Assembly: GCA_964016885.1 (NCBI GenBank) | Contig: OZ024744.1 | Location: 46,624,001 to 46,688,000, forward strand | DNA: 64,000 bases | Direction: 5' to 3' | Origin: Eledone cirrhosa | Taxonomy: Eukaryota | In this document: one piece after another, positions 872 through 45,515 of the stretch | Numbering within the stretch: position 1 is the first letter of the stretch | How the letters are laid out: each line of letters opens with the position of its first letter | Program-made: the position numbers and the translations under genes | The notes under the pieces: model-generated | What the model was told of the DNA's origin: nothing | What the model saw: only the letters and a program-made list of their open reading frames with translations | Database searches by the model: none

Positions 872-907
872 ATTCTTTTACTCTTTTACCTGTTTCAGCC
901 ATCCGGC
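872..907 (-). mobile_element. 3'-terminal stub of the CR1-like LINE family
   Basis: Matches the 3' tail of the LINE at 1553-1590 (GCCGGATGGCTGAAAC.GGTAAAAGAGTAAAAGA). Confidence 0.7.
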
Positions 908-1365
908 ATATATCACTGAGTCTAGGTAGAGGGTGGCGTCCAGGAAGTTAACGTTTTTAGTGTTTTTGTCCATGGTAATACTAAGGTTATAGTTTTTGAA
1001 TGTCTTGTGCAATAGTTTTCTAGCTCTTTCTATATTGAATTTTTTATAATCTATAAGTAGAAGTGCATCATCGCGGTACAAACCACCGTTGAGGTATGGA
1101 AGGTCCTTATGGATTTCGTTAAGTAAATATAGGCCGACTAAATCAGTGACCTGCGCCGTAAGCAAATAAATGATTTAAACTGAACTTTGATTCATGTGAT
1201 TTCTATATAACTGCTCTGTAAAACAACTGATATTATTACATTGCGGTATTTATCTTACTGGTAATAAGATAGTAATGAATTACTGTCTTACACTATTTAG
1301 GGTTTAAAATATATATAACTATATAAGGTTTTATTATATATATAACCATAAATAGTATCCTTAGT
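908..1365 (-). mobile_element. Naiad-like PLE RT fragment (908-1158, minus) fused to an inverted terminal-repeat segment (1158-1365)
   Basis: AQVTDLVGL...GGLYRDDALL...[10 protein letters not shown] motifs. 1158-1305 is a reverse-complement homolog of about 8650-8797. Confidence 0.8.
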
Positions 1366-7190: not shown

Positions 7191-7257
7191 GTATATATAT
7201 TTATTTATTTATGAAAGTAAAACAAAGAAGCCTTCAATACATCAAAAGTCTTTATTA

Positions 7258-7295
7258 GCCAACAATGTTTCGTCCTATTAAGGACTCATCAGGGC
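7258..7295 (-). ncRNA. Minimal type I hammerhead ribozyme motif
   Basis: Mirror of 8250-8287: GCC CTGATGA GTCC-ttaata-GGAC GAA AC-att-GT T GGC. Confidence 0.85.
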
Positions 7296-8249
7296 AATTA
7301 AAACAACAAGAAGTATTATCGGCCTATGCGAGCCGAAAACTCACTCATCCACATATATGTCTGTTTACCAACCTTGTAATTATAAGTAATTATATATTAT
7401 ATTATGTTAATTATTTTATATTATATTTCTTATTGTACTATCGATACTTGTTACTTACCGTTGATTATATATAACATTATGATATGTTAAATTGTATATA
7501 TCATGTAAGAAGTTTATATTTTTGTACCATCATAATTTTGGGCATTGTACAATTTATATTTTTTCTCACCTACTCTGTAACTCTATATGAATTGATTTGT
7601 TAACTTGCATGCCATTATATATTATATATTATATATGTTATATTATTATTATAGTATTATTGTGACATCTATATTGTTTGTGTAAAATTAACCGGAGATT
7701 ATCTATTATTATATTATATTATATGGTATATAATTGTATAGTTTATTATATATTATATGTGCTACTTATAATCATATCATATTATTACCTCATGTATATT
7801 AGATATATGTATTATTACTATTATTATTATTTTCATTCCTATCATGCTTATTTATATTTAAACTCTTAATAAGGTTTAATTTGTGCTGTTAAAGATGGAT
7901 ATGTGTATTGATGTATGTGTATGTGTGCGTACGTGTGCGTACATATATACATATATATATTGTACCTTTTAATTTTTATTGTAATTTTAATATTGTTACA
8001 AGTATATTATATTATATTATATAGTATTATATATAATTCCCGCTCTATATAACCACCTTTGTTTAGCTTTAGGTTTTTTTTTTGCTTTGGACTATATTTG
8101 TAAGATGGTTCTAAATGTTATACACCTCCTTAGTGATTTTTATTATATATTTTTACACATAATCTTGCAATACTTTAGTGTATGTACACTCCATATTCTT
8201 CGGAGTTTTCAGCTTGTATAGGCCGATAATACTTCTTGTTGTTTTAATT

Positions 8250-8287
8250 GCCCTGATGAGTCCGTAATAGGACGAAACATTGTTGGC
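8250..8287 (+). ncRNA. Minimal type I hammerhead ribozyme motif
   Basis: GCC CTGATGA GTCC-gtaata-GGAC GAA AC-att-GT T GGC. Canonical core with G10.1-C11.1. Confidence 0.88.
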
Positions 8288-8434
8288 TAATAAAGACTTT
8301 TGATGTATTGAAGGCTTCTTTGTTTTACTTTCATAATTCTTCGGCTCTGTTTAATTACATTGAGCTATACCTTTTACTGTCATTTTTATAATACGAAGAG
8401 GGTGTTTAACTCCAACACGCTCCAGTATTTTAAT

Positions 8435-8837: not shown

Positions 8838-11485
8838 CTATTTACTGATCTATAACATACTTGACCTCCTTTTCAACCCAAGAGACACATAACACATATG
8901 CGTATATTGATCAACAGTGGGGTGACATTCATCAAATGATATAGCATGGCAATTTACATGTAAAGGTTACAGGATAAAAATAAAAATAAAAATAAAAGCA
9001 AGAATGAAAATAAAGATAAACATGAAGCGTTGGCAGTCTATGAAGATAAAGCAAGAGGAAAGCTTAGAGTAGTCAGTGTATGAAACAATCTCACGTGTAG
9101 CATGCACGGGTGTCTTATTTATACATGATTAGAGTGCGTCAGAATGATATTTGCAGGGTCAGGCATTTGAAGCAGGCAATCGATCTTATTATGTGGGCTG
9201 AATTATTAAGTCATTTATTCTCATACATCTGTATGATATACAGTCTCGGATGCAGGGAAACACCAAAATATCACAAACTTTCAACATACTATAAACCTTA
9301 TTGTATCGTAGGCAAAGCCGTACCACTGTCTTCGCTCACACCGCCACTCACATAATCCATGAGACGCAATATATAGAACACGTGTCTATCGTATGATTCA
9401 CGATGGTTCAGCATATAATCAAGTTATAAACCGTATCCAGTCGGTTCTTAATTAATAGATCATGCTGTCCAGATTCCGGAAGTGTCTGAATGACTAAGGG
9501 GAATTAATGCGTAAGGGGAGGTAACTAGCTAGTTATCTTAGTTAAATTACTATCCTAAACTACATTAATGGTGATTCAAATACGTGCCTATCATATGAAG
9601 TTATAACTAATTTCTAGAGTATGTTTCCCAAGTATAGGTTAGAGAGTTGTCCATTAAGAAGTACAAGGGTGTATATATTAGGATGATTACCATACATTAA
9701 GGGGTGTCATATCTGAACATTCTATGAGAGGAGTCAGACTCTCAAGTCCCTGTTCCATGCAAATGTAATATAACAGTAGGACCTGGTATGGTCCCACTAT
9801 TATATATATGCCCCCCGGTAGGCTTCGGATCATTGCATGTCTGAATCTCCGGTAAATCTTCGGTATGGTCCGGAGATCCTATTTCACATATAAAGGCACT
9901 AGTCTGGTCATCAAGCAATAGACAACCCCCATCTCATATATAAATCAATTAAGTATCACATCTACAAGTTAGAGTGGAGTCTATTAATAGGTACTAAAGG
10001 AGTTCACATCAAGATGATTACAATCTGGAGATTAAATCTCTCATACCAGGGCACCTGTCTGGCCACCAAGTAATACGTAAACTCACATCCCACATATAGA
10101 TCAGGTATCCCATCTACAAGCTAGAGTGGAGTCCAGTAACAAGTACTAAAGGAGTTCGTATCATGATGACTACAATCAACATGGGGTGCCACACCCGGCC
10201 AATCCATAAGAAGAGTCAGACCACATAATTAATTACATGGGTCTCACTATCAGTAATGGTCTTATTATCATACATGACTCCCGGCGAGATTCAGGTCGTA
10301 GTATGACTGCATCCCCAATAAATTCACCAGGGTGGTCCGGTCGCCGGTTCTCTCGTCAAAAGGTGCCGGTCAGGTCACCAGGCAACACAGAGGCTCCTAA
10401 CTCATGCATCTCCTGTGCATAATTCATTTAACTGTATATATTCACATAACAATACGATTATCCATCTAATCATCAATCTATCTCTTGGTGGGAATCCATG
10501 CACAGGACTATGTTATCGCAACCAGTACCGTGTCCCCGGTTTATACTAATCTTATATTTGTGCAATGCAGATTAAGTAGTCCACGGTCGAGATATCAGAA
10601 TTAGAGGTACAAGGGGGTATTCCCAGGGTAGGTGGTACTAAAATGCTGTCAGTATTATCTTTAGAGTATACAAATGGGTGTGGATGTGAGGTGTAAGGTG
10701 AGCTACTGATGTTAATTGCTAGGGGTGGTGCCGGTTCCAGTCTGACATTATTATATATAGGGTTTAAAGTTTTGGAACGAGTGTCGGAAGGCAAGTTGCG
10801 AACACTTCTGATTTTTTTTATTAAGGAGACTATGTTTAGAGAAGATGATAGTATGGGTCTCTAGTAGACAGAGGTTACAAAATTTATTAGGTGGTTTGTA
10901 CGATGTTGCACTACCTACCACTTCCCATTTAAGTGTATATATTTTATTTTTAGTTTTTAGATAGTGTATGTAGCTAGATAGTGAAGTGGAGTTGGCTAGA
11001 CTGTGTTTTTTGAAAGAGTGGAGGTGCGAATTGTATCTAGTTTTGAAGCAGTTAGAAGTAGAACCTATATATGTTTCAGAGGAGTTGTTAGTTGTGACTG
11101 TACATGAGTATATGATATCCTTGGTTAAGCATTTTTTATCCAAAGGGCAGGTTCTACTTGATCTACAGTTACAATTACTCTGGGTGCTAGTCTGCCGGTT
11201 ATAAATAAGACACGCGTGCATGCTACACGTGAGATTGTTTCATACACTGACTACTCTAAGCTTTCCTCTTGCTTTATCTTCATAGACTGCCAACGCTTCA
11301 TGTTTATCTTTATTTTCATTCTTGCTTTTATTTTTATTTTTATTTTTATCCTGTAACCTTTACATGTAAATTACCATGCTATATCATTTGATGAATGTCA
11401 CCCCACTGTTGATCAATATACGCATATGTTTTATGTGTCTCTTGGGTTGAAAAGGAGGTCAAGTATGTTATAGATCAGTAAATAG

Positions 11486-11589: not shown

Positions 11590-12016
11590 ATAAAATATTA
11601 AAAAAATAATGAATAAAACAATGAAACAGTTCCTTATATTAAACAAAAAAAGTTCATTATTTAACGATCGTTTCTGGGATATATATGTGTTAGAATTGGC
11701 ATGTATATTTAACAGATCTATGTACAAAATTATACAAAATTATACAAACTATCAAAATTAAATATACATACCAACTCATATATATGCCGTCTTCAGAAAT
11801 AAATTATTTCTGAAGACGGCATATATATGAGTTGGTATGTATATTTAATTTTGATAGTTTGTATAATTTTGTATAATTTTGTACATAGATCTGTTAAATA
11901 TACATGCCAATTCTAACACATATATATCCCAGAAACGATCGTTAAATAATGAACTTTTTTTGTTTAATATAAGGAACTGTTTCATTGTTTTATTCATTAT
12001 TTTTTTAATATTTTAT
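11590..12016. repeat. Palindrome with 213-bp arms and a 1-nt loop (centre 11803)
   Basis: Arms read as reverse complements. The right arm continues to about 12151 as a homolog of the 26735-27064 terminal repeat. Confidence 0.95.
11803..11950 (+). ncRNA. Hammerhead motif with about 115-nt stem II (mirror copy 11656-11803, minus)
   Basis: ATTATTT CTGAAGA C [long hairpin] A GAA AC-gatc-GT T AAATAAT. Confidence 0.75.
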
Positions 12017-13991: not shown

Positions 13992-14584
13992 AAACTAATT
14001 AGTTGGAGTGAAATTTTAGTAAGTAAGTCAATTTTCATAACTTTCTTATTTACGTCTTTCATATAATTGTTCTTCATTCCCCTGCATAGAACCACAAAGT
14101 TACTAAGACAAAACATATTTATCTGCTAGCATAGGTATGCATCTGTATACATTAGTCGGTAGATATATTAATTCTTTATAATTATCTCCAAATTATGTTG
14201 AGCAAAATTTGCCAAATTACTACTGTGACTGATAGTAGTAGCTAGGCTCTGTCTTAATAGCACCCCCACTCCAAGCTTGTTAACCTCAGTGTCACGTGAT
14301 TGATTCTTTTGAATTTGCCACTTGACCAAGAAGGCAGTGAATTTTTCAGTGCTTAGAATCTAGCCCCGCTCGATTTTTTCGCTTTTTTCCATCCACTGAA
14401 TTATTGTTATATAAGTTCCCAGTGTCCCCGCATTGCCTGGAAACTTAGCTGAGATTAGACTCCCTGATGACGTAAGGCTTCTCTATAGTTATTACGTAAC
14501 TATATTTATCCCCTTACAGAAACTAATTAGTTGGAGTGAAATTTTAGTAAGTAAGTCAATTTTCATAACTTTCTTATTTACGTC

Positions 14585-14592
<8 letters not shown>
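13992..14592 (+). mobile_element. ORF-less HHR-bearing element with terminal direct redundancy (unit about 528 nt), retrozyme/mini-PLE-like
   Basis: 13992-14065 is repeated at 14520-14593. Homologous over its length to 43736-44304. Confidence 0.75.
14459..14537 (+). ncRNA. Type I hammerhead motif with extended stem II
   Basis: ACTCC CTGATGA C GTAAGG..(TATAGTTA/TAACTATA)..CCTTAC A GAA AC-taatta-GT T GGAGT. Confidence 0.82.
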
Positions 14593-14636
<44 letters not shown>

Positions 14637-16422: not shown

Positions 16423-17853
16423 TCACGGAGGTTTGAATCTTATGAATTTAGTGGCTATTCTATGCCTGCAGAAGATAGATCTTTCTAACTTATTATTAAG
16501 TAGTCTTTTAACATTTCTAAGGATATACAATAGCTCAAGATCACACAGCCCGCAATAGGACATACCTGTACTATAGGTTTTAGCAGCCGACAACTTCGAC
16601 CAGTTGATAGTGTAGCTAGCGTTGCTGTCCTTCAATTCCCATATTTTTCTGGCGAGGGTGGTGGAACCCATAAGAGCTCGGTTTTTCATCGAGTGCCTGT
16701 GCACATACCATCTTTTCTTAAAAGAACCCGCGGTGGATCCTATGTAATTCCAAGTGGAGTTACCCGAGATGACAGTGCACATGTACACCAGACTCGAATC
16801 GAGACATCTATTCGCCAATGGGCACCTATCTGGGAGGTGACAGTTGCAGTTTGAGGCGCTATTATGTGCAGCTTTTACATTCCTATTTAGTACCCTGTTA
16901 TAAGTGGGTTGTGATATATGCCCAATGGGGTTTTGCTGCTGCGCGTTTGTATGCGCTTGTGGTTGTGATGTTGTGATGAGTTTGTGCTTATGTATAGGTG
17001 CAATTGATTTACTTGAGATATTTCTGCGGTTGATCTTGCGTATGTGTGATTCTATGTTAGCTGCTGTTGAAAAAGAGAGTTTTATAGTAGATCTATTGAG
17101 TAGTTTGTGATATCTATGCGAGATAGGGAAGTGTTTATCTATTAGTTTAAAGAATATAGAGGGCAGTCTAGTTTTTATAGAGGAGTTGAATATTGGGTTG
17201 AACCATAGGTATTTCCTTTGTCTGTTTCTTCTATTGTTTCTAGGGTTTACGTTATTAGTGTTTTGGCCGTTTACTCTAGGTGTTACATGTCTAACCCTAT
17301 GTCTAGTCAAGCTATTCTTATTATTATGTGAGCGGTTGGAGTAGAAATTACTAGGATTGTTTATGTTGTCCTTATTCACTATATACTGTAGTTTATCTTT
17401 ATGACCGGCCCTACTTAATGCTGCATTATAATAGTCAGCATGCTCGTTAAAGATTTCTAGGTTTGAGGATAGGCGGGATATTCGGAGGGATATACTACGT
17501 GCTATGGATTTAATTATGGATTTGGGGTGATTTGAGTTGTAACTAATGTAGGCAAGATTTTCATTATTTTTGTGGAAAGGTTCTATTAATCCAGTATTTA
17601 GATTTAGAGTTACATCTAGAAAATTTACCTTCTTATGGTTTAGTTCGTAGGTAATACTTAGGCCTAGTTTTTTGAAGAATATTCTAATATTTTTCCTTAG
17701 TCTTTCCATGCTCTGGTTGTTTAGGTTCCTAGCTATAAGTAACGTGTCGTCCCTATAAATTCCTCCTTGGAGGTTACTGAATTCCTTATGTAGGTTGTGT
17801 GCTAGGAATAGCCCCACGATATCTGTAATTTGCGCAGAATCATTTGAACCCAT
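16423..17853 (-). CDS. PLE RT (C-terminal half) + GIY-YIG endonuclease, 5'-truncated (left arm)
   Basis: 476-aa ORF: MGSNDSAQITDIVG, GGIYRDD, VNFLDV, CNCHLPDRCPL, LVY...YIGST. Identical to the right-arm ORF. Confidence 0.85.
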   Translation of the reverse strand: MGSNDSAQITDIVGLFLAHNLHKEFSNLQGGIYRDDTLLIARNLNNQSMERLRKNIRIFFKKLGLSITYELNHKKVNFLDVTLNLNTGLIEPFHKNNENLAYISYNSNHPKSIIKSIARSISLRISRLSSNLEIFNEHADYYNAALSRAGHKDKLQYIVNKDNINNPSNFYSNRSHNNKNSLTRHRVRHVTPRVNGQNTNNVNPRNNRRNRQRKYLWFNPIFNSSIKTRLPSIFFKLIDKHFPISHRYHKLLNRSTIKLSFSTAANIESHIRKINRRNISSKSIAPIHKHKLITTSQPQAHTNAQQQNPIGHISQPTYNRVLNRNVKAAHNSASNCNCHLPDRCPLANRCLDSSLVYMCTVISGNSTWNYIGSTAGSFKKRWYVHRHSMKNRALMGSTTLARKIWELKDSNASYTINWSKLSAAKTYSTGMSYCGLCDLELLYILRNVKRLLNNKLERSIFCRHRIATKFIRFKPP

Positions 17854-17989
17854 TGTAATATCGAAGCTATTTATTCTATCCTTTCTTACCCAGTAGTTAT
17901 TTTCAAATTTTACGGCTAGAAGGACTATCGTAAAATTTGAAAATAACTACTGGGTAAGAAAGGATAGAATAAATAGCTTCGATATTACA

Positions 17990-19420
17990 ATGGGTTCAAA
18001 TGATTCTGCGCAAATTACAGATATCGTGGGGCTATTCCTAGCACACAACCTACATAAGGAATTCAGTAACCTCCAAGGAGGAATTTATAGGGACGACACG
18101 TTACTTATAGCTAGGAACCTAAACAACCAGAGCATGGAAAGACTAAGGAAAAATATTAGAATATTCTTCAAAAAACTAGGCCTAAGTATTACCTACGAAC
18201 TAAACCATAAGAAGGTAAATTTTCTAGATGTAACTCTAAATCTAAATACTGGATTAATAGAACCTTTCCACAAAAATAATGAAAATCTTGCCTACATTAG
18301 TTACAACTCAAATCACCCCAAATCCATAATTAAATCCATAGCACGTAGTATATCCCTCCGAATATCCCGCCTATCCTCAAACCTAGAAATCTTTAACGAG
18401 CATGCTGACTATTATAATGCAGCATTAAGTAGGGCCGGTCATAAAGATAAACTACAGTATATAGTGAATAAGGACAACATAAACAATCCTAGTAATTTCT
18501 ACTCCAACCGCTCACATAATAATAAGAATAGCTTGACTAGACATAGGGTTAGACATGTAACACCTAGAGTAAACGGCCAAAACACTAATAACGTAAACCC
18601 TAGAAACAATAGAAGAAACAGACAAAGGAAATACCTATGGTTCAACCCAATATTCAACTCCTCTATAAAAACTAGACTGCCCTCTATATTCTTTAAACTA
18701 ATAGATAAACACTTCCCTATCTCGCATAGATATCACAAACTACTCAATAGATCTACTATAAAACTCTCTTTTTCAACAGCAGCTAACATAGAATCACACA
18801 TACGCAAGATCAACCGCAGAAATATCTCAAGTAAATCAATTGCACCTATACATAAGCACAAACTCATCACAACATCACAACCACAAGCGCATACAAACGC
18901 GCAGCAGCAAAACCCCATTGGGCATATATCACAACCCACTTATAACAGGGTACTAAATAGGAATGTAAAAGCTGCACATAATAGCGCCTCAAACTGCAAC
19001 TGTCACCTCCCAGATAGGTGCCCATTGGCGAATAGATGTCTCGATTCGAGTCTGGTGTACATGTGCACTGTCATCTCGGGTAACTCCACTTGGAATTACA
19101 TAGGATCCACCGCGGGTTCTTTTAAGAAAAGATGGTATGTGCACAGGCACTCGATGAAAAACCGAGCTCTTATGGGTTCCACCACCCTCGCCAGAAAAAT
19201 ATGGGAATTGAAGGACAGCAACGCTAGCTACACTATCAACTGGTCGAAGTTGTCGGCTGCTAAAACCTATAGTACAGGTATGTCCTATTGCGGGCTGTGT
19301 GATCTTGAGCTATTGTATATCCTTAGAAATGTTAAAAGACTACTTAATAATAAGTTAGAAAGATCTATCTTCTGCAGGCATAGAATAGCCACTAAATTCA
19401 TAAGATTCAAACCTCCGTGA
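17990..19420 (+). CDS. PLE RT (C-terminal half) + GIY-YIG endonuclease, 5'-truncated (right arm)
   Basis: Same 476-aa ORF. The frame is open upstream through the palindrome spacer (ARRTIVKFENNYWVRK). Confidence 0.85.
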   Translation: MGSNDSAQITDIVGLFLAHNLHKEFSNLQGGIYRDDTLLIARNLNNQSMERLRKNIRIFFKKLGLSITYELNHKKVNFLDVTLNLNTGLIEPFHKNNENLAYISYNSNHPKSIIKSIARSISLRISRLSSNLEIFNEHADYYNAALSRAGHKDKLQYIVNKDNINNPSNFYSNRSHNNKNSLTRHRVRHVTPRVNGQNTNNVNPRNNRRNRQRKYLWFNPIFNSSIKTRLPSIFFKLIDKHFPISHRYHKLLNRSTIKLSFSTAANIESHIRKINRRNISSKSIAPIHKHKLITTSQPQAHTNAQQQNPIGHISQPTYNRVLNRNVKAAHNSASNCNCHLPDRCPLANRCLDSSLVYMCTVISGNSTWNYIGSTAGSFKKRWYVHRHSMKNRALMGSTTLARKIWELKDSNASYTINWSKLSAAKTYSTGMSYCGLCDLELLYILRNVKRLLNNKLERSIFCRHRIATKFIRFKPP

Positions 19421-20762: not shown

Positions 20763-22670
20763 TCAAGGCGGTTGATTTATCATAGGAGTGTCAATCCAGT
20801 TACAGATCAGATGCGATTTCAGATGAGGACAGCATCTGAAGATCTCAGTCTTTGAGTTAAGGCAAGCGGAAGTGGCTCTCAAGTTTAGCAAAATCCTATA
20901 TTTTTCTGTGGTACACAAAGAACAATTCTTTGTGCCCCTTTGGTACTCCCTCGAATGGTCTAATATAGACCAATCAATAGAGTACGGGATGTTACTATCC
21001 TTGAGTTCCTACACCTTACTTGCGAGGGCCGTTGATGTTCGTTTATCGGAGTGCTTAAAAGAAGCGACATGTGAGTAAAATCTTGTTTTAAACCTGTCCT
21101 GGGTCATACCGACATATCGCTCACTCCTGGCTGGCTGGTTGTTGATTACCGGTGTTATCTTAGCTTCATAAACAACAGATTTGGTGTTACATTTACCCTG
21201 CAATGGGCATTCATCCGGCTTCCTGCAACTGCATCCTGGATTTGTTCTCGTATGGTTTGAACTGATGATTTTGGACTTCATAGATGGGCAACAAGAGTAG
21301 CTGATCTTAACTACATTCCTATTAAATATCTTATAATATCTATGATTAGGAGGAAAATGTTTGTCTAAGAATTCAAGGAATTTCCTTCCTATATTAGTTT
21401 TGACAGTTAGAGAGAAGGGGGGGGGGTGAACCAAATAATCTTCCTTTTCCTGTTATTGTGGTTAGTTTTAGGGGGGGGGGGCGAGTAGGTAAATAAGAAT
21501 TTTTTCTGTAAAACCGACGTTCTTAAGGGCTTTATTATAATAAGGGGCGGCTTTATTAAAAATGTCTACAGACGAAGATAAGGTAGAAATCCTACGGCTA
21601 ATGTTAGGAATAAGATTATTAAAAACTATAGGGGGATGGCAAGACTCTTTGTGTATATACCTAAGATTTTCATTAGCTTTATGATAGGGTTTAAAAGAGG
21701 CGGTAAGTAGATCAAGATTAATATCAAGAAAGTTAGCATAGGTAAGGTTCGTATCTATAGTGATTTTAAGGTTAAGATTAGCAAAAGTATTGATTAAATC
21801 TTTACGGAATTTATCAAGGTTATGGCCGTTGGTGGTATGAGAAACTGCTAATCCGTCATCACGGTATAGACCGATATTATGGGACGGAAATTTCTCTTTG
21901 AGGGTGTGGAGAAGGAATAATCCTACTAAGTCACACACATCCGCACTGTCATATGAACCCATTGCAACATCAAAAGAGTTTTCAGGGTTTGACTTTTTAA
22001 CCCAAATATTATCATTAGTAAAGAGTAAAGTTTTTCTAGCATGAAAGATAATGTCTTCTTCTAATTTAGAAATATTAATGAAGGGTCTTGCAAAATCTAA
22101 GGCATTAGTTAATAAGGACACAGTAATAGATGGGTAAAAATCGACAATATCAAATTGGGTAAATCTACACTTATTTTTACCTTGTATATTATTAAACCAA
22201 GAAATAACAGAGGAAGTATTTAGCCACTGTGATAGGTCAGTGTTAGTTCTAATTTGGAGAATTATTTTTCTTAAGATTTTTTTACTTGCAAGGCCAACCT
22301 CGGATTTAGCCGGGTTAATCAGTCTACAACTAGGTCGATTAGTAAAGTCCAATTTATGGTCTTTAAGGGTAATATATACTTTACGCTTAGCTAGGCTTTC
22401 AATCCGGTTATCTATTTTTAAAGAACTAGCTAGTTCTTTAGCTTCTTTATTGATAGTATTGTAGGTATTATTATCAGTTAATTGATATTTATTGGTAATA
22501 CTATTAGTTAAAAGTTGGTTATACAAAGTACTATTAACTTCAAAGAGATTTTTAGTTTTATCAGAAAGAACAAAAGTATTTGTAGAATTTCTAAAATTAG
22601 AAATATCGTTAGATAGTTTAGTTTGAAAGTTATTATTGTACTTAAGAAATTTGATATCACTAATTTTTTT
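20763..22670 (-). pseudogene. Naiad-like PLE RT + GIY-YIG, frameshifted
   Basis: RLINPAKS, FDIVDFYPSI, MGSYDSADVCDLVG, GLYRDDGL, CSCRKPDECPL, YVGMT. Frameshifts at G-runs near 21417-21481 and a TAG at an expected Trp (21009). Confidence 0.9.
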
Positions 22671-26238: not shown

Positions 26239-26631
26239 AATTAAGTTAAAAATGTACATCTACATATGCATACTGAAATACTAGTAGGCATATGAATACA
26301 CACACGTATACATATGTAGATTTACCAAGTCTTTCACTGGTTACTTTACTGTGAGTATCCAGGTAAATATTGCTGATGAGTTGTAACAACAACGAAACTA
26401 GTTCAATATTCCTTGTCTGGCTTTCTGGAGAATAGAGGAAAGGTGTTTCCTAAAAAACCAGTATGACTCTAAAAACCGGTTTGTCTGTGTGTTTACATAC
26501 AGAATAGCTGGATACTCACAGTAAAGTAACCAGTGAAAGACTTGGTACATCTACATATGTATACGTGTGTGTATTCATATGCATACTAGTATTTCAGTAT
26601 GCATATGTAGATGTACATTTTTAACTTAATT
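26239..26631. repeat. Fold-back element: 124-bp inverted arms around a 145-bp loop that holds an HHR
   Basis: 26239-26362 is the reverse complement of 26508-26631 (2 mismatches seen). Confidence 0.92.
26366..26410 (+). ncRNA. Minimal type I hammerhead ribozyme motif
   Basis: AATATTG CTGATGA GTTG-taacaa-CAAC GAA AC-ta-GT T CAATATT: 7-bp stem I and canonical core. Confidence 0.9.
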
Positions 26632-26921: not shown

Positions 26922-27064
26922 TTCATTATTTAACGATCGTTTCTAGGACATATATGTGTTAGAAATGGCATGCATATTCAAAAGATCTATATACAAAATT
27001 ATACAAACTATCAAAGAGAATATACATACCATCACATATATATGCTGTCTTCAGAAATAATGAA
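26922..27064 (-). ncRNA. Hammerhead motif with about 110-nt stem II
   Basis: TTCATTATTT CTGAAGA C [long hairpin] A GAA AC-gatc-GT T AAATAATGAA: 10-bp perfect stem I. Confidence 0.8.
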
Positions 27065-28639: not shown

Positions 28640-29580
28640 TGGTATTTGTAAGAAAGAAGGCTAAATTATGCATTTTAACATAAGTAGACTATTAATTATA
28701 GGTTAAATAAAGTAAAAATAGTTAATATATTAATTTCTAAGGTGTATACTACTTAGGTTTATAATATATAAAGCGGAATTTTGAAGTTAAACAGTAGTAG
28801 AGTATTAATTATAGCATAACTAAATTAAAAATATTAACATGATGGTATCAATTTTAGGAAATGAATTTTGTAATAAGGAAAGCCAAATCAAGTATTTCAT
28901 CGGTAGTAGAATATTAATTATAGGTTAACTAAATTAAAAATGATATATTAATTTCTATAGTATATGTTAATTAGGTTTATAATAATTAAAGCAACATTTT
29001 GTATTTTATCTATAGTAGAATATAATTATAGGTTAACTAAATTAAAATTAATCTATATATTTATTTGTAAAGAATATATTAATTAGGTATATATTTAAAA
29101 GTTTTTCTCAGTTTATGATTACATGATATTCTGCAATCCATCTGTATTAGAATTTTAATTTTAAGCTAACTAAATTAAAATTATAGGTTAACTAAATTAA
29201 AATTAATTTATAAATTAATTTCTAAATTGTATATTAATTAGGTTTATAATATTAAAAAGTATTTCTCTGTTATTGATTACACGATATTTTGTTATATTTC
29301 ATCTGTAAAGGAATTTTAATAAAAGGTTAAATAAACTAAAATTAATCTATATATTAATTTCCAAAGTATATATTAATTATGTTAATAATATTTAAAAGTT
29401 TTTCACAGTTTATGATTACACTATATTTTTTAATTTCATCTGTAGTAGAATTTTAATTAAATTAAAATTATAGGTTAACTACATTTAAATTAATTTATAT
29501 ATTAATTTCTAAAATATATATTATTAATTAGGTTTATAATATTTAAATGTTTTTCTCAGTTTATGATTACACGATATAAT
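28640..29580 (-). repeat. Degenerate tandem repeat (about 110-155 bp unit) derived from the PLE ORF 3' end
   Basis: TTAATTAGGTTTATAAT..TTTCTCAGTTTATGATTAC-like units near 29525, 29375, 29235, 29080, 28970 and 28750. Confidence 0.75.
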
Positions 29581-31448
29581 TAATTCCTGTCGCTTATTTA
29601 ATAGGATATCCTTAGATTTCATTATTTCAAATAGTTCTTGGGAACACAATCTACATTCATTTCTATTATTTTGATAAGGGGTGGCTCTTTTGAGCACACT
29701 CCAGGTCATATCATATTCTATATTCTTATTTCTATAACTATTAATTTTTTCTGCTAGAGATGTTGTATTAGCCAGTGCGGCATTTTTAAAACTATGTTTG
29801 TGGGTATTAAACCTTACCTTAAAATTGTTAGAAGTAGCTCCTATATATGAGCAAATAGAATCTTTAGTTTTAACTTTACATTTATAAACTATGTTGTTAA
29901 CAAGACAATTTCCTTTTAATGGGCAGTTTGCTTTGTTTCTACAGTTACAACCTTTCGTTAATTCTGTATTTCAGGAGATATTATGGTTAGTTTGATGTAT
30001 TGGTGGTATACTTATGGTTTTTTTACATTTATATGCATTATAGGCACTTATATTTTGTTTTATGTTTTTGGTTGTTGAGTATGAGAATTTAACTGTTGAT
30101 CTATTTAAGATTTGATGGTATTTGTGGTTTGGCGGGAAGTTTTTCTCTAGGATATTAAAAAATTTTTTAGCAATATTATCCTTAATTTGTAAATTAAATG
30201 GAGCATTATACCAATAACTCGTCTATTACGGTTTCTATGTTGTTTATTGTTTTTATAGGATGCATCGTGATGTTTACTAGGAGGATTAATGTTAATGACC
30301 TCACCACGCACATTTTTAGTTAGATTTATTGATTTAGGTGTTTTAGCTTGTTTATTAGGAGTTTTATTATTAACATTTATTAGAGTTGTATGATGAGTAG
30401 TTTTTTGAGAGTTACTATACTTTTATATTAGAGGAGTTAGAGAAATTTGGTTTTATGTTGGTATTTTGGGGTATAGTGTGAGTGGCATTTACGTGTGTAC
30501 TTTTCATTTGGTGTTTGTTGGTAATGTTAGGTTGTATGTTTATAGTGTTATTAGTAGAAGGTATATATTCCAATCTATTTTTGTGGCCACTTCTATCTAG
30601 AGCTTCGTTATAGAAGGTCGCATTTTTATCAAATACATCTTGGTTAGACGAAAGGTTAGAAATTCTAAGTGATATATTATATGCAAGGTTTTTAAGGATA
30701 TATTTAGGGTGATTAGATTGTGAGTGTATGTAGTATAAGTTTTGGTTGGGTTTATGGTAAGGTTGGTAGATACCCGTAGCTTAGTCTAAAGTTATATCTA
30801 GGAAATTAACTACTTGTGTTTTCAAAAGTAATATGAAGACTATAATAGTCTTTAAGGAAAGTTCTAATAAGCTTTTTGTTTTTTTCTATTTCTGAGAGGC
30901 TAAGGTTGTTGGAAAGAAGAAGACAGTCATCACGATATAAACCACCTTTAAGGTGGGGAAAGGAAGCATTTATGTTAAAAAGAAGAAAGAGGCCCACAAG
31001 ATCAGTAATTTGGGCAGAATCGCTTGAACCCATAGTAATATCAAATAGATTACTATATGTGTTTCTGGTCCAGTATTCATTCTGAAATTCAATAAGTGTT
31101 AGTCTAGCATGTGTAATAATATTAATGTCATCCAAAGTTAAGTTAGATCTATTTTTAGCAAATATCAAAGCTTTGTTCAGGAGTATAGGTGATATAGAAG
31201 AATAGTAAATATCTATATCAAATTGTAGAAATGAAGCAGAAGATTTACATCTAATATTTTTAAACCAGTTAATTACTTGGGAAGTGCTTTCCCAGAGTGG
31301 TAAATTAACATGTTTTCTTATTTGTGGGATGACTCTATCCAAAATTTTTTTGCTAATTATTCCAATATCAGATTTGGAGGGACATATAAGTCTTATAGAA
31401 GGATTTGAGTTAAAGTTTGATTTATGATCTTTCGGGTTGAAGTGTGGT

Positions 31449-31620
<172 letters not shown>

Positions 31621-43508: not shown

Positions 43509-43586
43509 ACCTCTACCATGGTTTCGTCCGCATTTTAAGACATCCGATAACATAGGATATCTAGAGCTTCGGATTCATCAGAAAGT
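43509..43586 (-). ncRNA. Hammerhead motif with an extra hairpin between A9 and stem II
   Basis: ACTTT CTGATGA [ATCCGA..TCGGAT][GTC..GAC] GAA AC-catg-GT A GAGGT. Confidence 0.68.
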
Positions 43587-43735
43587 TAGCTCAAATTTAG
43601 ACAATTAATTTTCCAAAGTGATCGCGCCAAGAATACATTAAAAAATGGCTAAGAATCGTGACGTGGCAGCGGTCAAGTTAGAAAGGATGTGATTAGTTGC
43701 TTACGGCTAGTAGGCTTATTGCTAGAAAGCGCATA

Positions 43736-44304
43736 TAAGTAAGTTAATTTTATAATTTTCTTATTTTACGTCTCTCATATTATTGTTCTGCAACCCCATG
43801 CATTGAACCACATTGTTAATAAGACAAAACCTATATATTTGCTAGCATTGATATGCATCTGTGTGTATATAAATGTTACTAGATATAAATTCCTTATAAT
43901 TATCTCCAATTCATTTGTCGAGCAATATTTGGCCATGACTGCTACTATGGTAGTAAGCTGGCCGCTGTCTTAATAACCACTCGCTTTCCACTGATTGACC
44001 TCGATGTCACGTGATTGATTCTTTTTGAATTTGCCACAGACGTAGAGGCAGTGATTTTCTTAATGGCTTGGAATCCAGTCCACGCTTCGCTATTTCCATT
44101 CCACTGAATTATTTTTTTAATAAGTTTCCAGTGTCCTCGCTATGACTGGAGACCTATACGGAAAAAGACTTTCCTGATGACGGAATGATTTTCCATATGT
44201 TTCTTCGGAAAATATATTTACTCCATTCCAGAAACTAATTAGTTGGAAGTGATTTTTTAGTAAGTAAGTTAATTTTATAATTTTCTTATTTTACGTCTCT
44301 CATA
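43736..44304 (+). mobile_element. ORF-less HHR-bearing element with terminal direct redundancy (unit about 525 nt)
   Basis: 43736-43780 is repeated at 44261-44305. Diverged homolog of 13992-14592 with the same 3' end. Confidence 0.75.
44168..44250 (+). ncRNA. Type I hammerhead motif with extended stem II
   Basis: ACTTTC CTGATGA C GGAATG (ATTTTCC/GGAAAAT) CATTCC A GAA AC-taatta-GT T GGAAGT. Confidence 0.82.
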
Positions 44305-44323
44305 TATATATATATAAGTACAT

Positions 44324-45515
44324 ATCATCATCATCATCGTTTAACGTCCATTTTCCACGCTAGCATGGGTCTGGACGGGAATTGTCCCACTTGAGGCAAG
44401 ATTGGTTGTCTTGCTCAGGACTATCTGGCGGGTTTTCTACGGCTGGATGCCCTTCCTAACACCAACCACGTTTACAGTGTGGACTGGGAGGTTTTTACTG
44501 TGTTACCTACACGGCCACATTACAGCGTGGACTGTGTGTTTTTTTGTCGTGACACCTACACGACCTCATTTGTTTCGAACTGGATGTTGTGGTACCACAT
44601 AATTTCACATTTAAGGGAGTGGTGTGGATGGGGTGGGGGTAGTGGGACGGGGTTGTATTTTGTTAGAGGTGCCTACTGACTGTAGGTTTCGCTTTGTACT
44701 TAGGCAAGGCGGGTCTTCTGTATAACTGTGTAGCGCAAAAGATCTCGGTTCAGTGACATTGTCTTGGAGAGGTGTAAGTGTGTGAGGTCGGAATTTATCA
44801 AGTCGTCCCAGGTTTTTCTGGGTCTGCCTACTCCGTGGCTACCGTCTATTTTTATCGCCCTGCACTTTTTTATACAGCTGTCATCTTTCATGCGCATCAC
44901 GTGACCGTACCAACGTAGTCTTCTCTCGAGTAAACAACATCTGATCCCTCTTATTCCTAATTTCTACCTTAGTTCGTTTATGCTTTACCGTTCACGTATA
45001 TTACTATTACACATCCACCGGAGCATGCAAGCTTCGTTTCTCACGAGTCTGCTTATATCATCTGCACACAATGCCCAGATCTCACTGCCATGTAACATTG
45101 CTGTTCGTATGCAGGCATCATACAGCCTGCCTTTCATTTTTAGAGAGAACCCTTTAGCGGCCAATAGTGGTATAAGCTCTCTGAACTTTTTCCATCCCGT
45201 TCTGACTCTAGCTACTGTACTTTCAGAGCACCCTCCCCCACTGCTGATTTTGTCACCCAGGTAACGGAAGCTGTCCACTATTTCTATAGAACCATCTGTG
45301 CAATGGAATGAGCTAGTATTCGGTGGGCATTTGCTGCTACTTATTGCACCAGAGCACCGGCCACATATAAAATCTATATTCTTAGTTAGCTTACCTGTGA
45401 TCCCACTACATCTTTTATGCACCCATACTTTGCATTTGGGACATAAAATGGAGTTTCTGCCTACTCCTTTCCTACACACTGAACATGGCCATTTCCCAGA
45501 TGGGACCGGTGCCTT
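44324..45515 (-). mobile_element. 5'-truncated copy of the PHD-containing RTE LINE
   Basis: Homologous to 54145-55335, including the 3' UTR and (ATG)n tail. Confidence 0.92.

Follow-up and report, generated by a model that had tools for sequence, protein, structure and literature searches.

The motif at 44168-44250 of the window (the whole stretch of DNA analysed here, 64,000 nucleotides) reads as a type I hammerhead ribozyme carried by a 525-bp Penelope-like element (PLE) repeat of about 10,000 copies, whose fold has been kept by compensatory changes. It likely cleaves slowly, as a dimer, after a GUU triplet; a pseudoknot between its leader and stem II is likewise likely, as is mobilisation in trans by a Hydra-clade PLE protein. 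We put the probability of this reading at roughly 0.6.

The hammerhead motif and its repeat family

A scan of both strands found the series CUGAUGA-C-stem II-A-GAAAC-UAAUUA-GUU, enclosed by stem I, in the 44168-44250 and 14459 copies (core positions 44174(+) and 14464(+)). The features of this family, hereafter family 1, are as follows.

43736..44305, + strand: non-autonomous Penelope-like element that consists of a 525-bp unit and a terminal redundancy of 45 bp and runs out in (TA)n
44160..44165, + strand: leader GGAAAA, predicted 5' strand of the pseudoknot (helix 1, 85% of cells paired)
44168..44173, + strand: stem I 5' strand, pairing with 44245-44250 (6 bp, vs. 5 bp in the 14459 copy)
44174..44180, + strand: core C3-A9, CUGAUGA, with internal-branch change only at N7
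44181, + strand: C at 10.1, or the additional nucleotide that PLEs have after 9 and before 10.1; one clade has A here
44182..44187, + strand: proximal stem II 5' strand GGAAUG, pairing with 44224-44229
44188..44194, + strand: pyrimidine tract within the stem II internal loop, with which the leader is predicted to form the pseudoknot
44195..44216, + strand: distal hairpin of stem II, capped by a C(UUCG)G loop; its homolog in the 14459 copy is TATAGTTA/TAACTATA
44224..44229, + strand: proximal stem II 3' strand CAUUCC
44230, + strand: A at 11.1, or extra A preceding G12; faces C 44181
44231..44244, + strand: G12-A13-A14, self-complementary stem III region AACUAAUUAGUU and GUU triplet
44245..44250, + strand: stem I 3' strand
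14020..14593, + strand: the other family-1 copy, from the GTAAGG subfamily and about 77% identical; its hammerhead lies at 14459-14537, its leader GAGA at 14451-14454

By sequence criteria, 44168-44250 is a type I hammerhead in all respects save one. It has the CUGANGA, GAAA and UH core, three stems and an open stem I; the pair that is usually, if not universally, found at 10.1-11.1 next to A9 and G12 is absent in family 1, where C faces A and a G-C pair lies one step out (43/44 rows of the alignment described below). The palindrome AACTAATTAGTT spans 44233-44244, and the hammerhead consensus places the predicted cut between 44244 and 44245. The sequence-only reading had described the core, the palindromic stem III and the C facing A (44181/44230) as retained in both copies, and the scan confirmed this, together with the two double substitutions that turn stem II from GTAAGG/CCTTAC (14472-14477 and its partner) into GGAATG/CATTCC (44182-44187/44224-44229). 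Single-sequence folding of the window copy did no better than shuffles (z 0.12 and -0.68). The family-1 motif is absent among the matches listed for the Rfam hammerhead models (150 of 241, E<=5), its long stem II lying outside these models.

The bounds of the element were set by blastn against fetched loci with tandem and inverted 5'-truncated copies. In the assembly (3.0 Gb, 1796 contigs), the family-1 pattern matched 10,203 times (5571+4632) vs. 20 (16+4) in a reversed control, and a relaxed hammerhead scan gave 308 matches on real loci vs. 0 on reversed loci. Copies occur singly, in tandem and with inverted 5'-truncated partners, in subfamilies whose identity to the window copy ranges from 98-99% down to about 69%. 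Satellite-like arrays, long and either tandem or clustered, were seen at G000:C9:18411725-18461299 and C1:152492760-152499185.

The 3' end of family 1 falls at one of two positions, separated by 118 bp and each leading into (TA)n (exact ends: 20 and 19, from 58 arrays at 40 loci); loose ends into (TA)n also occur in three DNA-like runs of one sample. The window itself is AT-rich and full of TA microsatellites. A PLE tail with two ends has been attributed to two internal reverse transcriptase (RT) starts in an anole PLE (PMC11167929), and by analogy the two family-1 ends match this tail signature. The inverted 5'-truncated copy, the optional tail and the (TA)n target of PLE insertions are all found in family 1, which also has the trait of non-LTR retrozymes, a short non-coding hammerhead unit both dispersed and in tandem. 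Directly after the TA end of the element, at 44326-44600 of the window, and likewise beside loci L029, L040 and L050, lies a different repeat opening with (CAT)n, presumably a LINE/SINE-type end.

Truncation points did not accumulate at the predicted cut: the 5' ends of the 58 arrays are spread nearly evenly over the unit. By blast, 3/58 fall within 4 nt of the cut; on inspection, 0/16 truncated anchors (among 224) start there, in a test weakened by ascertainment. An autonomous partner for family 1 was not found among the RT/endonuclease (EN) fragments beside the 10 loci examined. These fragments belong to varied families or are interrupted by the element, and look like co-targeting. The family-1 unit had no significant blastx match to P0001, the PLE protein of family 2 described below.

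Selection on the fold

Alignment A1 has 44 rows; 3/47 cluster representatives were left out (one junction, two deletions) and the 2 window copies were added. Before clustering, intact upstream context was absent in 23/151 copies. Paired states fill 91.7% of the 923 cells of A1 vs. 83.3% after shuffling (0/500 shuffles) and 33-52% with partners slid; neither double-change pairs nor further pair types exceeded the shuffles (82 and 136 of 500). In the proximal stem II, 96% of cells are paired and pair 2 shows all four Watson-Crick types.

To follow the changes by descent, we used the 400 bp upstream of 64 copies (the full flank being present in 64/149) for a tree, on which the states were mapped by parsimony; site counts on the tree omit 2 deletion copies. 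On internal branches, the proximal stem II underwent 5 independent double substitutions without a subfamily-level break. Three of these are in pair 2 (U-A to C-G, U-A to A-U and A-U to G-C) and two in pair 5 (G-C to U-A, twice), the sole further internal-branch change in this helix being A-U to G·U. A null of six random flank-column pairs gave a mean of 0.21 doubles and 12.8 singles, and reached 5 doubles in 0/20,000 draws. The covariation that the sequence-only reading had proposed to check in a larger alignment was found, in A1 and on the flank tree.

The 11 core sites show 0 internal-branch changes vs. 12.2 expected, N7 changes 3 times, and the 8 palindrome sites show none, but part of this core invariance is built in, because most loci were found with the core pattern. 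In a search anchored on the flank only (2,540 matches, GGAAGTGA-type subfamilies), the 15-nt 3' core was intact in 87/100 among the matches listed, counted by eye, with scattered deviations. Individual copies decay at about 1% per site. The 5 independent doubles and the lack of a subfamily-level break (0/20,000) therefore indicate that the fold is under selection, and the mostly intact 3' core with its scattered single changes suggests that this selection acts across successive master elements, copies decaying after insertion. The data thus support selection on the family-1 hammerhead fold across successive masters, rather than decay, as the earlier reading had proposed; its further claim of a functional C·A subclass was not supported, as set out next.

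Other hammerhead families, position 10.1/11.1 and a predicted leader pseudoknot

The same C·A was said to occur in an unrelated family of the window. We found it, with a CGATCG palindrome and a stem II of about 100-115 nt, at 11810(+), 11796(-) and 27054(-), and the DNA of this family 2 cannot be aligned with that of family 1 beyond one 52-nt AT-rich stretch; the two C·A families may not be independent, because both have Penelope-type anatomy. The 52-nt likeness (75%), between the family-1 tail region (L132 unit 109-160) and the family-2 stem II region (L101:5535-5584), may be chance or a shared protein-binding motif. The further features of the window that bear on these families are listed here.

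26922..27064, - strand: family-2 hammerhead in the 3' pLTR of a putative Hydra-clade PLE; it has C·A, GUU, a CGATCG palindrome and a rod-like stem II some 100 nt long
29527..31450, - strand: broken fragments of the family-2 RT/GIY-YIG open reading frame (ORF), four pieces by tblastn with P0001, 71-97% identity; upstream of the 27054 hammerhead
11656..11950, no single strand: head-to-head inverted pair of 5'-truncated family-2 pLTR copies, cores 11810+ and 11796-
43509..43592, - strand: fourth-family hammerhead with CCATGG palindrome, A·C at 10.1/11.1, leader GAGCU vs. loop AGCUC; just upstream of the family-1 element

Family-2 patterns matched 6,731 times genome-wide (3358+3373) vs. 0 in the control. 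The family flanks an 827-codon open frame, P0001, with an RT, a C-terminal GIY-YIG and RWR, DKT, CxCx5C, CxxC and CxH motifs; RWK-like, DKT, CxCx5C, GIY-YIG, CxxC and CxH motifs belong to the description of the Hydra clade in PMC8557442, and on this motif comparison we assign family 2 to that clade. Same-sense hammerheads lie in pLTRs on both sides of the ORF at L101, L102 and L105. A Pfam search with P0001 gave nothing significant, and a search of representatives gave 13,531 relatives, none of them named. Between the end of the ORF and the 3' hammerhead, the family-2 elements (L101-L111) have a TA/TG-rich, microsatellite-like stretch of about 2.5-3.7 kb, by which they exceed the described Hydra elements (under 3 kb).

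The inversion at 11600-12000 is perfect and joined inside stem I, with like junctions at the same spot in L067, L076, L087, L117 and L118; a transcript of this pair would fold as a long hairpin hiding both hammerheads. More hammerhead-like motifs, belonging to other families, lie at 26355-26426 (+), 31774 (+), 59355 (-)/59481 (+), 463 (-), 7254-7298 (-) and 8247-8291 (+), making about a dozen within the 64-kb window, three of which score below the Rfam gathering cut-off. Other Hydra-like PLE ORF fragments, with 34-54% identity to P0001, were seen at 20823-22664 (-), 17356-18487, 10760-11191 (-) and 893-1159 (-), which shows that the window contains several Hydra-like PLE families.

At 10.1/11.1, about 10,200 family-1 copies have the 3' A vs. 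49 without it; the latter are scattered over subfamilies, loss of the A being found in no amplified subfamily seen. Among the matches listed, 100/100 flank-anchored copies kept the A, and about a third of the same 100 (by eye) had scattered C-to-T changes at the CpG, which would reflect deamination. Genome-wide, 477 family-1 copies have a non-C opposite the A, and one clade, 11/62 tree copies, has A·A. Hammerheads with U·U are present in the same genome (3,276 matches vs. 718 in the control), other families have A·C, A-U, G·U or G-C, and within a third family the site changes among G-C, G·U and U·U while the arms of stem II stay identical. In two families, the switch between G-C and a mismatch occurs without a change in length. 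These data show that 10.1/11.1 is loosely constrained across the hammerhead families of this genome, C·A being a lineage state and not a required pair.

Published hammerheads point the same way. In the Hydra-clade Penelope hammerheads tabulated in File S2 of PMC8557442, U·U is found in 14/25 and U·C in 1/25, and the Chara PLE-X1_cBra hammerhead in the same file has exactly C·A. A natural U10.1-U11.1 has been reported, U·U being the most active mispair in the data given in PMC3088659, and the U·U-bearing axolotl HHR_Amex2 is described as cleaving 22% in 1 h as a monomer and much more as a dimer (PMC7229834). The A·A clade, the sister-family variants and these published mismatches therefore do not support a C·A-specific subclass. 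In the literature accessible to us, no paper was found that discusses the C·A variant or family 1; Lunse et al. 2017 and Hammann et al. 2012 may cover them.

The position can also be numbered differently. The PLE consensus given in PMC4209133, CUGANGAH, has an extra nucleotide after A9, and the family-1 C may be this nucleotide, with G10.1-C11.1 intact (43/44 rows) plus an extra A. Two observations speak against this numbering: in family 2 the next pair outward varies among G·U, G-C and A-U, and the families that switch do so without any indel. The two numberings describe one and the same 1x1 opening. Families 1 and 2 combine the mismatch with U17. Of the family-3 copies, 9 have U·U together with GUU, and 7 have G-C or G·U together with GUA. 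By our own count of the Hydra table in PMC8557442 (8/15 vs. 2/10), the mismatch and U17 may co-evolve.

The inner hairpin was said to have been replaced in the 44168 copy by a different one, ATTTTCC/GGAAAAT, which was not borne out. This hairpin can form there (-8.7 vs. -8.3 kcal/mol for the homologous one), but in A1 ATTTTC aligns with CTTCTC, a loop strand; we rejected it as the homolog of TATAGTTA/TAACTATA because it is out of register with its homologs. The homologous distal hairpin is 44195-44216, which covaries in register, with 5/5 pairs changed on both sides. A more likely partner for the pyrimidine tract of the 44168 copy is the leader on the 5' side of stem I, with which it would form a pseudoknot: the leader (GAGAA; GGAAAA at 44160-44165) is complementary to the loop strand (UUCUC; 44188-44194).

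This predicted pseudoknot is backed by complementarity and limited covariation. Of its six pairs, the inner five hold in 37-44 of the 44 rows and the outermost, 16:40, is open in 22/44; in the 14459 subfamily the helix is reduced to 4 bp. Genome-wide, the third pair is G-C in 9,076 copies, A-U in 1,026 (a number inflated by double counts), G·U in 260 and A·C in 89. The A·C copies are scattered, save for one tandem array, and the G·U class contains the lineage leading to A-U, the change from G-C to A-U being probably a single lineage event.

Other families show the same geometry with unrelated sequences (GGGCA/UGCCC, GAGCU/AGCUC and AAAGA/UCUUU). In family 3 (L214-L238 and L095:1558(-)), whose stem II is three-way-branched and about 95 nt long, the leader GGGCA matches UGCCC, and in the CCATGG family (43509-43592, L129 and L167), which has A·C or G-C, the leader GAGCU or GAGU matches the loop AGCUC or ACUC. 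Across 10 families, leaders form longer duplexes with the loop of their own family than with the loops of others (permutation p 0.0004, an optimistic value because the family patterns were chosen after matches had been seen), with the signal coming from 4 families, two of which rest on 2-3 copies. Medians reached 5 bp in 0/90 non-cognate combinations, and per-family shuffle p values were weak, from 0.002 to 0.37. A leader pseudoknot was not found in five further families of the 10 sampled. In family 2, the candidate AATATAC/GTATATT was rejected, the tract lying inside the long stem with a median duplex of 3; this family has C·A and GUU without a pseudoknot. Pseudoknots of 4-6 bp between stems I and II are reported for about 40% of hammerheads in the set of PMC3088659, and in the literature accessible to us none was found for the PLE hammerheads of metazoans. 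Compared with C·A, the predicted leader pseudoknot, which recurs together with an extended stem II, is the fresher feature.

Proposed mechanism and relation to known hammerheads

We propose that the family-1 motif works like a dimer-dependent PLE or retrozyme hammerhead. The predicted off fold, in which CUGAU pairs with the AUUAG of the palindrome, has an energy of -9.5 vs. -7.0 kcal/mol for the active monomer, i.e. is 2.5 more stable, and two palindromes can form an intermolecular duplex of 10-12 bp at -9.0 to -10.8 kcal/mol. In the monomer, the 3-bp stem III would thus lose to the CUGAU/AUUAG fold, and in tandem or multimeric transcripts palindrome-palindrome pairing would free both cores. 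Better cleavage as dimers is reported for PLE and axolotl hammerheads (PMC4209133 and PMC7229834). The leader and the internal-loop strand would pair, keep stems I and II parallel and offset the weak base of stem II and U17. Catalysis would use the established hammerhead chemistry, with G12 as the base and the 2'-OH of G8 as the acid (in part from PMC11300833). Cleavage would release a unit-length, possibly circular RNA, which an RT/GIY-YIG protein would copy into TA repeats, beginning at either of two internal sites; selection would work on successive master copies.

The even spread of 5' ends speaks against a central role for cleavage, as does the anole PLE, whose hammerhead is described as dispensable for insertion in vitro and as cleaving only with protein added (PMC11167929). 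Alternatively, the fold might be maintained chiefly for recognition by the Penelope RT/EN protein, in RNP assembly or in positioning the RT start, with catalysis vestigial. Two features expected to slow cleavage do coincide (the mismatch and U17 in families 1 and 2, U·U and GUU in family 3), the cut site has no pile-up of 5' ends, and in vitro PAc insertion is given as unaffected by HHR mutants in PMC11167929. However, the pattern of conservation is that of a catalyst, with 11 core sites fixed and N7 variable; U·U-type and PLE hammerheads do cleave, according to the data in PMC4209133, PMC7229834 and PMC11167929, and GUU is common among the PLE hammerheads published in PMC4209133 and PMC8557442. 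We regard this alternative as unlikely. Nor do we think it probable that C·A is a specifically selected non-canonical pair, e.g. a protonated wobble, that defines a convergent subclass. About 17,000 matches in two unalignable families, the A lost in no amplified subfamily seen and the same C·A in the Chara PLE-X1 entry of PMC8557442 would fit such a pair, but the A·A clade and the 477 non-C copies do not, sister families have U·U, A·C, G·U, A-U and G-C, and Penelope ancestry may be common to both C·A families.

That the motif is a decaying relic, whose paired changes arose by chance and were passed on by subfamilies, is already largely refuted and has next to no chance of being right: copies do decay, at about 1% per site, and the hammerhead is not the minimum free energy fold of the window copy, but five independent doubles without a subfamily-level break (0/20,000 in the tree-aware null) and young subfamilies that are 98-99% identical speak against it. 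The preferred reading, of a selected and slowly cleaving PLE hammerhead, can be extended further, if only tentatively. These motifs would then form an undescribed Penelope hammerhead radiation, with the stem II loop pinned by the leader pseudoknot, an open 10.1/11.1, U17, the monomer off and the dimer on, in which the series G-C, G·U, U·U, A·C, C·A and A·A would show the pair to be dispensable or deliberately detuned; we see this as possible but rather doubtful.

Among known systems, the Hydra-clade PLE hammerheads tabulated by Craig et al. 2021 (PMC8557442) are like the present ones in being type I, with a near-palindromic stem III, frequent U17 and (TA)n targeting, and in having a non-paired 10.1/11.1 in 15/25 families. 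They differ in that their stem II is a short hairpin with a loop of 3-10 nt, whereas here it measures about 50 or 100-115 nt and includes both an internal loop and a distal hairpin, in that the mismatch here is C·A or A·A, and in that family 1 is non-coding with a predicted pseudoknot. PLE-X1_cBra of Chara braunii shares the C·A between CUGAUGA and GAA, then G-C, and a self-complementary stem III, but has a short stem II and C17 in an EN-minus algal element, and is listed as canonical without comment in the same source. The metazoan PLE minimal hammerheads of Cervera and de la Pena 2014 (PMC4209133) share the CUGANGAH-G...C-GAAA-palindrome-NUH series, the dimer mode and low activity. In their consensus, however, G12 directly follows C11.1 and helix III is minimal or lacking, AGAAA appearing in 1/56 rows of Fig. 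S3 (the 29th, by row order probably a Cotesia PLE), and the accessible part of that account has no leader pseudoknot of the kind predicted here.

Non-LTR retrozymes (PMC7229834; Li et al. bioRxiv 10.64898/2026.07.22.740005) are likewise non-coding tandem units with a type I hammerhead, for which a PLE origin is proposed in these sources. The axolotl HHR_Amex2, with U·U at the base of helix II, cleaves (PMC7229834); retrozyme units are given as about 220-390 bp with loop-loop contacts (PMC7229834; 10.64898/2026.07.22.740005), vs. 525 bp, PLE-type inverted copies and a tail in family 1. The pseudoknotted hammerheads of Perreault et al. 2011 (PMC3088659) share the 4-6 bp stem I-II pseudoknot and the natural U10.1-U11.1. 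The examples seen in that source are mostly prokaryotic, from phage or the human C10 ribozyme. In the present retroelement hammerheads, the leader would instead pair with one strand of the internal loop in an extended stem II.

In PLEs, hammerheads are slow in vitro and, in one element tested (PMC11167929), dispensable for insertion. C·A itself is no surprise, being one of several tolerated pairings with published precedents. Family 1 provides phylogenetically clean evidence of selection on the whole fold during retrotransposition, and supplies natural variants for the contributions of the 10.1-11.1 pair, U17, dimerisation and the leader pseudoknot. With about 17,000 matches from two families in one genome, Rfam models and standard descriptors, which have a short, paired stem II, likely miss such motifs, and hammerhead counts in animal genomes may therefore be underestimates.
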